Assembly: GCF_013122565.1 (NCBI RefSeq)
Contig: NZ_CP053258.1
Length of the DNA stretch: 64,000 nucleotides
Source: Escherichia coli
Lineage (GTDB): Bacteria; Pseudomonadota; Gammaproteobacteria; Enterobacterales; Enterobacteriaceae
Direction: 5' to 3' (one strand)
Made by a program: the position numbers and the translations under genes. Below, piece by piece: positions 2-5,425 of the stretch; the first letter of the stretch is position 1, and each line of letters begins with the position of its first letter. The notes under the pieces are model-generated. The model searched no databases, was not told the DNA's origin, and was given only the letters and a program-made list of their open reading frames with translations.

Positions 2-997
2 GAAGAAACTGTTCAGGAGTGGGTGGACAAAATCCGCAAGCAGGTTGCCCCGTTCCTCGATTTCGACTGTGGAGAAAACTCTGCTATCGCGGCGAACAAC
101 TATGACTGGTTCGGCAATATGAATGTGCTGACCTTCCTGCGCGATATTGGCAAACATTTCTCCGTTAACCAGATGATCAACAAAGAAGCGGTTAAGCAGC
201 GTCTCAACCGTGAAGATCAGGGGATTTCGTTCACTGAGTTTTCCTACAACCTGTTGCAGGGTTATGACTTCGCCTGTCTGAACAAACAGTACGGTGTGGT
301 GCTGCAAATTGGTGGTTCTGACCAGTGGGGTAACATCACTTCTGGTATCGACCTGACCCGTCGTCTGCATCAGAATCAGGTGTTTGGCCTGACCGTTCCG
401 CTGATCACCAAAGCAGACGGCACCAAATTTGGTAAAACTGAAGGCGGCGCAGTCTGGTTGGATCCGAAGAAAACCAGCCCGTACAAATTCTACCAGTTCT
501 GGATCAACACTGCGGATGCCGACGTTTACCGCTTCCTGAAGTTCTTCACCTTTATGAGCATTGAAGAGATCAACGCCCTGGAAGAAGAAGATAAAAATAG
601 CGGTAAAGCACCGCGCGCCCAGTATGTACTGGCGGAGCAGGTGACTCGTCTGGTTCACGGTGAAGAAGGTTTGCAGGCGGCAAAACGTATTACCGAATGC
701 CTGTTCAGCGGTTCTTTGAGTGCGCTGAGTGAAGCGGACTTCGAACAGCTGGCGCAGGACGGCGTACCGATGGTTGAGATGGAAAAGGGCGCAGACCTGA
801 TGCAGGCGCTGGTTGATTCTGAACTGCAACCTTCCCGTGGTCAGGCGCGTAAAACTATCGCCTCCAATGCCATTACCATTAACGGTGAAAAACAATCCGA
901 TCCTGAATACTTCTTTAAAGAAGAAGATCGTCTGTTTGGTCGTTTTACCTTACTGCGTCGCGGCAAAAAGAATTACTGTCTGATTTGCTGGAAATAA
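2..997 (+). CDS. tyrS: tyrosyl-tRNA synthetase, C-terminal ~324 codons (5' end outside window)
   Basis: ORF 23..997 open to the window edge; translation ends ...[15 protein letters not shown], recognised as TyrS C-terminus. Confidence 0.93.
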
Positions 998-2676: not shown

Positions 2677-4179
2677 TTACGCTACGGCTGCTTTCGCCGC
2701 TTTGTCTGCAGCGTCATCCTGCGTCATGCGGTGCAGTTTCGGCGCGGTCAGCAGCATCAGTACTGCAATAACGGCAGTAGCGACACCAATCTGCAAGAAT
2801 ACGCGACCATAGACTTCCAGTGACATCAGCGGATCGGTAACGTTATCCGGCACAGCCATCATACCCGCAACATAACCACCAATCAGGTTTGCACCGGCAG
2901 TGGTCAGGAACCAGCTACCCATAATGAAGCCCATCAGACGCTGCGGAACGAGTTGTGCAACCATTGCCAGACCCAGACCAGAGATCATCAGTTCCCCGAT
3001 GCTCTGCAGGCCATAGCTTGCGACCAGCCAGCTTACAGACACGATACCAGCGTCAGACGCGAATTTCGCACCCAGCGGCAGAATCAGGAACGCACCAGAA
3101 CACATCACCATGCCGATTGCAAACTTGGTTGGCATCGGCAGGGTATCGCCCATCTTGTTATAGATAGCGGCCAGAATCGGACTACCGATGATGATCCAGA
3201 ACGGGTTCAGTGCCTGATACTGCTCAGGTTCTACGGCCAGACCCAGAATGGTGTGTTCAACGTTACGAATCGCAAAGAAGTTCAGTGACGTTGGCATCTG
3301 GCTGTACAGCACGAAGAAGATAATGGCTTCGAGCATCAGGATGAAGGCAACGATCATTTTACGACGCGCAGCACCTTTCATCGCGAAGGCTTCTTTACCG
3401 AAGATCACCACGATACCGAAGGCAACAACGCCCAGCGCCATACGCGCAACTTCCTGATTGTGCAGCAGCCAGGTGGCGATAGCGATCAGTGCCACAACAC
3501 CAATAATGGTCAGCAGCAGGTTACGGTAGTTGATAGGCTCGAAGTCTGGTTTTGAACCGTACTGTTTAACCCAGCGTTGGCAGAAGGCGAAGTTAACGAT
3601 AGTGATCAGCAGGCCTACAACGCTCAACGCAAACGCAACGCTCCAGCCGTATTTCGCAGCCAGCCACGGGGTGGCGATCATAGAGAAGAAAGAGCCGATG
3701 TTGACGGACATGTAGTACATGGTGAATGCACCGTCCAGACGTGGGTCGTTTTTCTCATAGCATGTAGAAAGCAGAGAAGACGGGTTAGCTTTAAACAGGC
3801 CGTTACCGACCGCAATAGCCGCCATACCCATATAAACAATACCGGCGTCGTGACCAGACCAGGCAACCAGAGCATAACCAATCGCCAGCACAATAGCGCC
3901 GAGCATAATTACGCGTTTAGTACCCAGTACCTTGTCACCTAACCAGCCGCCGATAGCGACCAGACCATAAACCAGGGCACTAAAGGAAGAGAAAAGGGTG
4001 ATTGAATCCGCTTCAGACATACCCAGTTGTTTAACCAGGTAAACAGCCATAATTCCTTGTAGGCCGTAATAACCAAAACGTTCCCATAACTCAATCGAGA
4101 AGATGAGATAGAACGCCTTCGGTTGTTTGAAAGCGTTCAAACTGACGCTTTCAGTTGGTTTTTGGTTTGCAGTGGACAC
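2677..4179 (-). CDS. dtpA: proton-dependent di/tripeptide permease (POT family)
   Basis: 500-aa polytopic membrane ORF recognised as DtpA/TppB. Confidence 0.92.
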
Positions 4180-4789
4180 TTTTACCTCTTTTTTTACATC
4201 CCATATTAACGGGGGTGCTTTCTCGCGTTATGTCTAAAAAACATACGCGCAATTGTTATAGTGGGAGGGGAAACGGCAGGTAATGTTCACTATCTTGCAC
4301 TTTCAGACAAGTCCTTTGTAATAATCTGTTACATATAACTGGGGCGGGGAATTCAACCATTCCGGGAAATGTTATGCAGCGTTAAATTTTTCAAAAAACG
4401 TAACGGCAGATTTTTTCACTGCATTGAGAGGGGGATGATGGCTTAACGGCGATATGTTCTGCTATTTAGCGTTTTTCCTAGTGAGATAGTCCAGTTTCTG
4501 AAAAATAGCCAGTGTAATGTTTTGTAGGTCAATATTTGTTGCGTGTGTAAATTTAAATGATTTTAACCTGATTCTTGCAATGTTTTTACATTGCCACAGC
4601 ATCGTGATCTTGATCACGAATGAATAGAAAATTTCGCTATTAAAAAAACAATTAACCTGCATTTTTGGTTATCCGCAAACGGATTACCTGATGATAACGC
4701 TAAGCAATGGCATCATTGACGTTAAAAAGATGTTTTAAAAGAGGATAAAGAAAGGTTATGAATGGGGTAATCGGTGTTACCCCTTATCA

Positions 4790-5425
4790 TTAGATGTCAA
4801 CTTTCTCTTTGTATTCACAAAGATCTTCAATAATACAAGAGCCACAGCGAGGCTTGCGGGCAATGCAGGTATAACGCCCGTGCAGGATCAACCAATGGTG
4901 GCAGTCGACTTTAAACTCTGCCGGAACCACTTTCAGTAGCTTTTCTTCTACCTGTTCGACGTTTTTCCCCGGCGCAAATTGAGTACGATTACAAACGCGG
5001 AAAATGTGCGTGTCGACAGCAATAGTCGGCCAGCCGAATGCAGTGTTTAATACGACGTTGGCTGTTTTACGACCTACGCCGGGCAGGGCTTCAAGCGCAG
5101 CACGATCTTCCGGAACCTCGCCATTATGCTGCTCCAGTAAGATACGGCAGGTTTTGATGATATTTTCTGCTTTGCTGTTATAAAGCCCAATCGTTTTGAT
5201 ATAGGTTTTCACCCCTTCAACGCCCAGTTCAAGCATCGCTGCAGGCGTATTCGCCACCGGGTAGAGTTTCGCCGTCGCCTTATTAACACTGACATCGGTC
5301 GCCTGAGCGGAAAGCAGTACGGCAATCAACAATTCAAAAGGCGAACTGAAATTAAGCTCGGTGGTGGGATGAGGATTGTTCTCACGCAGGCGAGTGAGGA
5401 TCTCCAGGCGTTTTGCTTTGTTCAT
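4790..5425 (-). CDS. nth: endonuclease III (DNA glycosylase/AP lyase)
   Basis: 211-aa ORF with C-terminal Cys cluster (CIARKPRCGSCIIEDLC); start ATG overlaps rsxE stop (ATGA). Confidence 0.93.
   Translation of the reverse strand: MNKAKRLEILTRLRENNPHPTTELNFSSPFELLIAVLLSAQATDVSVNKATAKLYPVANTPAAMLELGVEGVKTYIKTIGLYNSKAENIIKTCRILLEQHNGEVPEDRAALEALPGVGRKTANVVLNTAFGWPTIAVDTHIFRVCNRTQFAPGKNVEQVEEKLLKVVPAEFKVDCHHWLILHGRYTCIARKPRCGSCIIEDLCEYKEKVDI

Follow-up and report, generated by a model that had tools for sequence, protein, structure and literature searches.

The nth-dtpA intergenic region of Escherichia coli occupies positions 4180-4789 (610 bp) of the 64,000-nucleotide stretch of DNA that we analyzed, hereafter the window. 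Both flanking genes lie on the minus strand, and the gap is bounded exactly by the GTG start codon of dtpA at 4179 and the stop codon of nth at 4790. The product of nth is the 211-aa endonuclease III, and that of dtpA (synonyms tppB and ydgR; K-12 locus tag b1634) is a 500-aa permease translated from GTG. The counterpart in K-12 MG1655, at 1712159-1712768, is likewise 610 bp and carries no annotated feature; the two gaps differ by 10 substitutions and no indels, and all 10 spare the -35 and -10 elements, the transcription start site and the CRP core described below. The region thereby matches the dtpA promoter and leader of K-12 in both locus and sequence. A megablast search of 5426 complete E. 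coli genomes recovered the stretch in 5423, with nth and dtpA as its annotated neighbors. G+C content is 0.37 across the gap and 0.33-0.37 at 4400-4800, with the flanking genes at about 0.50-0.55. In length the gap ranks second among the 57 inter-ORF gaps of the window (median 57 bp) and first among those between co-directional genes. The preliminary description of this DNA had noted an unusually long, AT-rich gap upstream of dtpA with several hairpins, and these features are real: the hairpins and palindromes we found are a G+C-rich hairpin at 4764-4783, a CRP palindrome at 4603-4618 and two hairpins in the leader. Our analysis identifies the gap as the already-known dtpA (tppB) regulatory region and leader, not a hidden gene. 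Positions within it are given below as the distance from the nth stop codon on the sense (minus) strand, such that the window coordinate equals 4790 minus the position, and older K-12 coordinates were converted by adding 1976, the shift in bp between genome versions.

Using the DtpA protein as query against a single genome of each species, we obtained 80 Enterobacteriaceae loci, from Escherichia, Citrobacter, Salmonella, Klebsiella, Kluyvera, Enterobacter, Kosakonia, Atlantibacter, Franconibacter, Siccibacter and other genera. The nth gene lies directly upstream of dtpA in all 80 species, and the gap measures 570-640 bp in 71 of them; these 71 were aligned, and identity to the window was averaged over the 66 species outside Escherichia. 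The alignment delimits four conserved blocks that extend to about -385 relative to the dtpA transcription start. Block A (4584-4661, positions 129-206, minus strand; identity 0.67) consists of CAGGTTAAT-N2-T7, AAATTTCTAT, the CRP site and GATAAC..ATGTTAA. It is separated by a spacer of variable sequence (4528-4583; identity 0.31) and nearly invariant length from block B (4447-4527, positions 263-343, minus strand; identity 0.69), which carries ATTTTTCAGA..TGG.CTATATCACTG and AGCAGAACATATCGCC. Block C (4366-4421, positions 369-424, minus strand; identity 0.68) contains CAGTG.AAAAA and GAAATTTAACGCT..ATAACATTT, and block D (4276-4365, positions 425-514, minus strand; identity 0.72) is the core promoter. 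Identity reaches 0.74 in the leader, as against 0.31-0.36 in the spacers and 0.53 at four-fold degenerate sites of dtpA. By this comparison, the distal blocks are under selection as strong as that on the known promoter. The distal 302 bp are single-copy in 5423 of the 5426 complete E. coli genomes, with no paralogous copies, and only one E. coli genome has them disrupted, by an IS66-family element between blocks A and B, at about 4577.

The spacing of the conserved motifs is close to rigid. Measured to GTGAACATTAC in the -10 block, ATGTAACAGA lies 44 bp away in 81/81 sequences, AATTTAACGCT of block C 98 bp away in 81/81 and AGCAGAACATAT, the B3 motif of block B, 173 bp away in 80/81. Farther out, 55 sequences have the CRP core 326 bp from the -10 block and 6 have it at 327 bp, and the CAGGTTAAT motif is separated from the -10 block by 368 bp in 60 of 68 species and by 366-369 bp in all 68. 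The part of the gap next to nth behaves differently. From the nth stop codon to block A we counted 28 different lengths, ranging from 93 to 258 bp, and the lack of indels therefore does not extend to the entire locus; the control for the near indel-free 368 bp is this adjacent nth-proximal segment, rather than enterobacterial promoters in general.

Most of the variable segment is an unconstrained spacer (4662-4763), with a mean identity of 0.34 over the 66 non-Escherichia species, that runs from the conserved blocks to a G+C-rich hairpin, GGGGTAACACCGATTACCCC (4764-4783, minus strand), found by hairpin detection 6 nt past the nth stop codon. Across the 71 aligned species each genus has one such hairpin at the same place, and the sequences are unrelated. 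Genus-specific hairpins of unrelated sequence after nth are the usual signature of a terminator, and we consider this hairpin the probable terminator of the rsx-nth operon, a function assigned from sequence and one for which the U-tract is weak.

Transcription of dtpA starts at 4275 (plus or minus 1; position 515, minus strand). This assignment corresponds to K-12 1712673, the single start given for b1634 in a SMRT-Cappable-seq supplement (PMC6131387), and the same dtpA start is implied by OmpR and GadX ChIP-exo tables after the 1976-bp shift. Reading back from the mapped start, we place the -35 hexamer TTGTCT at 4305-4310 and the -10 hexamer AACATT, within GGATAGTGAACATTACC, at 4282-4287; block D additionally holds an invariant ATGTAACAGATTATTACAAAG. 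A consensus promoter scan of the gap found no promoter, the dtpA core included, which fits an activator-dependent promoter. A weak core promoter also fits the report that a single A-to-T change beside the -10 element, which sweeps repeatedly in long-term stationary cultures, raises dtpA mRNA 23-fold.

Several regulators have been mapped to this promoter. An OmpR ChIP-exo peak at 1710621-1710680 in older K-12 coordinates (centre -46.5, about -76 to -17) falls at 4292-4351 in the window, adjoining the -35 element; the peak centre and the published start both lie on the fully conserved block D of the window. A fragment from -201 to +15 suffices for the published dtpA fusion, which depends strongly on OmpR, being activated at low and repressed at high OmpR, and dtpA was reported in the same work as non-responsive to osmolarity (PMC5175337). 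A GadX ChIP-exo peak at 1710534-1710554 (older coordinates; PMC4918353 supplement) converts to 4418-4438, about -151, in a poorly conserved spacer. YdcI ChIP-exo places binding somewhere upstream of dtpA, tppB is cited as a member of the Lrp regulon, and an arcA mutant expresses dtpA at a 2.5-fold lower level. The complex regulated promoter suggested by the preliminary description is thus borne out, with OmpR and GadX binding in the gap, YdcI upstream, CRP in vitro and conserved blocks reaching to about -385.

The CRP site in block A, CGTGATCAAGATCACG (4603-4618; K-12 1712330-1712345), is centered 335.5 bp upstream of the dtpA start. It matches TGTGA-N6-TCACA at 8/10 half-site bases with correct spacing, and at least 8/10 of these bases are kept in 56 of the 71 species. 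The identical K-12 sequence, ttCGTGAtcaagaTCACGatg, was reported as a novel CRP site with a Kd of 2.1 nM in vitro (2026 preprint, PMC12871828), and direct evidence of binding to the distal blocks exists for CRP alone, from in vitro work only. The location of its site at -335.5 rules out the established class I and class II contacts, and no conserved promoter-like site was found at a canonical distance on either strand.

A tight and conserved CRP site usually lies at a promoter, which raises the alternative that a second, distal, CRP-activated promoter produces a dtpA mRNA whose leader is about 390 nt long, or else a non-coding transcript of its own directed towards dtpA or nth. The window does contain an extended -10-like TGcAAGAAT at intergenic positions 211-219, and in most other genera an ArcA-box-like TGTTAA-N5-TGTT repeat overlaps the place where this -10 element would sit, a point that can be set beside the lower dtpA expression of the arcA mutant. 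For a transcript running towards nth, a T-rich tail comes after the post-nth hairpin on the plus strand. However, a sigma-70 matrix scan over the alignment on both strands found no promoter held in the same column close to the CRP site, with at most 23% of species passing the threshold; the best conserved -10-like element in that scan is TATAAC at +16 to +21, not near the CRP site. The best -10 candidate would lie 46.5 bp from the centre of the CRP site, not 41.5 or 61.5 bp, and the DNA on the nth side is not conserved. Neither a conserved RNA structure nor a conserved terminator lies between the CRP site and the known start, SMRT-Cappable-seq gives only 1712673 in this gap, albeit by a method that selects long transcripts and would miss short RNAs, and tppB has no entry in the available portion of the ArcA ChIP tables. 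Taken with these observations, a distal promoter is in our judgment unlikely.

A different reading of the distal conservation is that it does not serve dtpA, and reflects either nucleoid organization, with an orphan CRP site and H-NS or Fis bound to A+T-rich DNA, or a mutational cold spot. The region is indeed A+T-rich, 40 CRP sites without an assigned promoter are listed in PMC12871828, and the link between the distal blocks and dtpA is one of sequence comparison. Against this, the conservation takes the form of sharp, sequence-specific blocks between saturated spacers, not a diffuse A+T bias, and the adjacent 100 bp of the same gap are free in both sequence and length. The blocks also travel with dtpA: in Kosakonia, an inserted gene for a 152-aa membrane protein separates nth from block A, whereas dtpA has kept the blocks beside it. 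We therefore rate this reading as very unlikely, and below the distal promoter in probability.

Motif searches gave little to assign to the remaining conserved DNA. An OmpR matrix built from seven porin sites (F1-F4 and C1-C3, confirmed as exact in K-12) scored at best 6.5 on the gap, where the maxima of shuffles averaged 8.0 (P 0.83); the OmpR motif scan proposed in the preliminary description thus yields no enrichment. We had also read AACAT at -12, -55, -98, -141 and -183, 43 bp apart, as OmpR half-sites, and dropped this reading as unsupported; three identical 4-mers in an evenly spaced chain, as in the 43-bp AACA periodicity, arise in 33% of shuffles. Matches to the Lrp consensus are no more numerous in the gap than in shuffles; the best, 14/15, is AAATTTCTAT on block A, with three weaker ones on blocks B and C. 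An IHF consensus scan of the gap returned 0 matches, and internal repeats were limited to short two-copy families at chance level. Two further candidates were rejected. The FNR pattern matches only the CRP palindrome (12/14), whose GTGA half-sites are of the CRP type, and the direct repeat just downstream of the CRP site that would serve as an ArcA site is good in many genera and degenerate in E. coli.

The preliminary description had raised the possibility that an sRNA or leader peptide is hidden in the gap. An Rfam scan of 3900-5100 by E-value at permissive thresholds, which supplies the covariance-model search it proposed, returned only chance sub-threshold hits to eukaryotic families and hence no credible match. 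RNAalifold, run on 110-column windows from 40 diverse species on both strands, gave a consensus energy of 0.0 at positions 1 to 457 and only about -1 to -2.4 in windows over block D, and blocks A-D contain no terminator-like sites. A 3'-end table, which may be incomplete in the portion available, has no entry for dtpA or for K-12 1712200-1712699. An independent short transcript in the gap, of a size that the transcript data consulted would miss, is unlikely, and the suggestion of an sRNA finds no backing in family matches, in conserved structure outside the leader or in a conserved terminator.

The same applies to coding potential, where the view that the gap holds no convincing ORF stands. 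The longest ORF (4462-4662, minus strand) encodes 66 aa and is intact only in E. coli, both the window and K-12 included; three other Escherichia species have it shortened to 38 aa, and other genera lack its ATG. It crosses the spacer of 0.31 identity and is annotated neither in K-12 nor among the E. coli records listed, and we judge it spurious. Neither this nor any other ORF of the gap has a Pfam or NCBIfam match, and a six-frame analysis of ORF synteny in the 71 species found none conserved across genera in blocks A-C. Within the leader, a 12-codon upstream ORF (uORF; 4206-4244, minus strand) overlaps hairpins 1 and 2, and its TAA stop occupies the same column in 47 of the 71 species. The encoded peptide, however, differs between species (variant MSLTHHAPDNPC), the ATG lies within a hairpin stem and gives way in some species to CTG, GTG or GCG, and the E. 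coli uORF lacks an upstream Shine-Dalgarno sequence; we regard it as incidental, and the proposed leader peptide fails on both its peptide and its start codon. The existence of either a hidden small protein or a regulatory leader peptide is therefore highly improbable, the least probable of the alternatives considered here. Given that no conserved RNA structure, ORF or family match was found upstream of the start, we conclude that blocks A-D act as DNA.

The transcribed part of the gap is short. The preliminary description was correct in proposing a leader but not in calling it long, as it measures only 96 nt (4180-4275, minus strand) and five-sixths of the gap is untranscribed DNA and the nth terminator. 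From its 5' end the leader comprises a 5' segment, hairpin 1, hairpin 2, an A-run and the Shine-Dalgarno sequence GAGG (4185-4188). The 5' segment (4255-4275, minus strand), CCCCUCCC followed by UAUAAC, is nearly invariant over its first 21 nt (GCCGTTTCCCCTCCCA.TATAAC in DNA). Hairpin 1 (4224-4249, +27 to +52, minus strand) forms in all 56 distinct sequences, with folds of -8 to -16.5 kcal/mol and a mean z of -2.5, and the leader is the only window of the RNAalifold analysis with a consensus structure (-6.2; z -8.8 against column shuffles). In a structure-blind alignment, 84.6% of hairpin 1 cells pair, compared with 16-40% when the partner is slid; six of the seven pairs show changes on both sides, and the observed covariation was reached in 0/500 shuffles. 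Hairpin 1 is thus a conserved structure backed by compensatory changes, one of the features of a structured cis-regulatory leader such as a riboswitch or attenuator. Hairpin 2 (4200-4213, minus strand), CCCGUUAAUAUGGG, is conserved and nearly invariant, such that it shows little covariation and is uninformative in this respect. Since a U-tract follows neither hairpin, the leader is not an attenuator, and we found no sign of a terminator or switch in it. In the minimum-energy fold of the leader, CCUC at +8 to +11 (4265-4268) is predicted to pair with GAGG of the ribosome-binding site, the only long-range pairing in the prediction. This helix is 4 bp long and invariant; the overall fold does not stand out (z -1.16), and we put the pairing forward as an idea only.

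Constraint continues into the coding sequence. The GTG start and the CA-rich early codons, ACTGCAAACCAAAAACCAAC (4154-4179, minus strand), lie just outside the gap and are invariant, synonymous sites included. Codons 3-9 (ACTGCAAAC.A..AAACCAAC) do not vary even at four-fold sites, which points to a constraint at the RNA level. Control of tppB by the small RNA GcvB has been reported (PMC9299463, PMC4474525); tppB figures among the GcvB R1 targets, with verification in Salmonella and RIL-seq chimeras in E. coli. We infer that codons 3-9 are a candidate GcvB pairing site, at which the predicted duplex energy is no better than that of shuffles (P 0.15). GcvB targets such as dppA and oppA resemble dtpA in having a CA-rich stretch at the translation start region, and differ in that the dtpA candidate lies in codons 3-9, outside the gap, with a duplex that does not stand out from shuffles.

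Together, these data support a model in which the gap is made up of the probable nth terminator, a spacer of about 100 bp, an array of about 385 bp (blocks A-D) acting at one weak sigma-70 promoter and a 96-nt leader, an account we consider probable. The promoter would be too weak to act alone and would be controlled by several DNA-binding proteins, which would sit at fixed distances and on fixed helical faces within a looped or wrapped nucleoprotein complex. A weak promoter, the mapped factors, blocks reaching to -385 and a fixed register all point to such a higher-order protein-DNA complex, and the fixed faces of a looped or wrapped complex would explain why spacers are free in sequence yet fixed in length. 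CRP bound at the distal site may play an architectural part, bending the DNA at the far end rather than contacting RNA polymerase directly. At the mRNA level, stability and translation may be governed by the leader hairpin together with the CA-rich start region, with translation controlled by GcvB.

A more specific form of this model is possible, although we hold it only tentatively and with more doubt than conviction: the 368 bp between block A and the -10 element would form an enhancer-like module, with the DNA folded onto the weak, OmpR-dependent promoter by CRP and the proteins bound to blocks A-C. In a variant, block A would instead drive a CRP-dependent short transcript absent from current annotations. 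Were the module real, selection would act on the length of the spacers and not on their sequence, and a single promoter would integrate signals from carbon, amino acids and the envelope.

For the array at a weak promoter, as we interpret the gap, the closest precedent by analogy appears to be ompF. The asnS-ompF gap is 602 bp long and lies between co-directional genes, much like the 610-bp gap at dtpA, and ompF too has a weak OmpR-dependent promoter, with OmpR sites F1-F3 beside the -35 element and a distal site, F4, about 280 bp further upstream. Activation at low OmpR and repression at high OmpR, a feature of ompF, has been reported for dtpA as well. Unlike ompF, however, dtpA has as its distal protein-bound element a CRP site (in vitro) rather than an OmpR site, the matrix derived from F1-F4 and C1-C3 does not pick out its distal blocks, and the gene is reported to be unresponsive to osmolarity.

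Other systems share individual features. CRP contacts RNA polymerase from sites located between -41.5 and -93.5. The dtpA site is like those of class I and class II CRP promoters, for example lac and galP1, in being a near-consensus 16-bp palindrome of nanomolar affinity, but it lies at -335.5 from the only mapped start, with no promoter at a canonical distance. The Lrp complexes of ilvIH, pap and gltBDF are similar to the dtpA array in that conserved sites extend over more than 200 bp upstream with their spacing kept and the spacers free. In Salmonella, tppB is leucine-inducible. The gene is cited as Lrp-regulated, and the best match to the Lrp consensus falls on a conserved dtpA block; the number of consensus matches at dtpA, however, is not above chance.

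Control of dtpA is usually described with a short OmpR-dependent fragment, and rigidly spaced conserved DNA reaches almost twice as far upstream. What is new here is the depth and rigidity of this upstream conservation, the conservation of the CRP site and the covarying leader hairpin, a modest advance on a known regulatory region. The tight CRP site in the array is used by no model of dtpA regulation. The arrangement may also bear on strain construction, as the nth-ydgR gap serves as a neutral landing pad. Intergenic DNA, nth and ydgR are mentioned together in one paper on integrating synthetic constructs at specific chromosomal sites and in two on promoter reporter assays encoded in the genome. 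If a landing-pad insertion lies inside the array, it would cut dtpA off from conserved upstream elements and would place reporters beside CRP and OmpR sites.

The nth-dtpA intergenic region (window 4180-4789), which is used as a neutral landing pad, is in fact a conserved regulatory array. The DtpA protein of Escherichia whittamii (locus L003) is 100% identical to that encoded in the window, whereas the gaps upstream of the two genes are only 82% identical, and almost all of this divergence lies in the spacers. The CRP core (window 4603-4618) holds a pair of GATC (Dam) sites with a spacing of 6 bp, both of which are retained in most genera; by eye, this pair appears to account for all GATC sites in the gap.

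Among 5423 E. coli genomes, the sole disrupted copy is that of strain GZ2408C (L086), in which an IS66-family element, carrying an ISCro1-like transposase with TnpA and TnpB, separates the CRP block from block B, at approximately window position 4577. In Kosakonia quasisacchari (L056, 1832-2290), a gene for a predicted membrane protein of 152 aa, encoded on the opposite strand, is inserted into the interval between nth and the conserved array upstream of dtpA. Further loci of Kosakonia and Phytobacter carry an insertion of this kind at this location, and the gap is thereby lengthened to approximately 1060-1185 bp.

Downstream of the mapped dtpA start, at +16 to +21, is a nearly invariant TATAAC (window 4255-4260), with TTACCT located 17 bp upstream of it. 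No other -10-like element in the gap is as well conserved: it passes the threshold in 62% of species, and it reads TATAGT on the opposite strand. It could specify a second start approximately 27 nt downstream, act as a sigma-dependent pause site, or belong to a divergent promoter.

A hairpin with an 11-bp stem is located within dtpA itself, at codons 9-18 (window 4127-4154; mRNA GAAAGCGU...ACGCUUUC), directly 3' of the CA-rich start region. Most species form this structure, with a mean of -9.9 kcal/mol; read on the opposite strand, it precedes a T-run and receives a terminator-like score. Since the conserved peptide ESVSLNAF overlaps the hairpin, its occurrence across species may be explained by amino-acid conservation.

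The co-directional layout of the nth-dtpA gap is shared with the asnS-ompF gap of K-12 (L084, 986800-987600), which is 602 bp long. There, the OmpR sites lie 210-170 bp (F1-F3) and 490 bp (F4) from the ompF ATG.

As a side observation, nth, ydgR (dtpA), and the word "intergenic" are named together in three papers, of which one deals with the integration of large synthetic constructs at specific chromosomal sites and two with genomically encoded promoter reporter assays.
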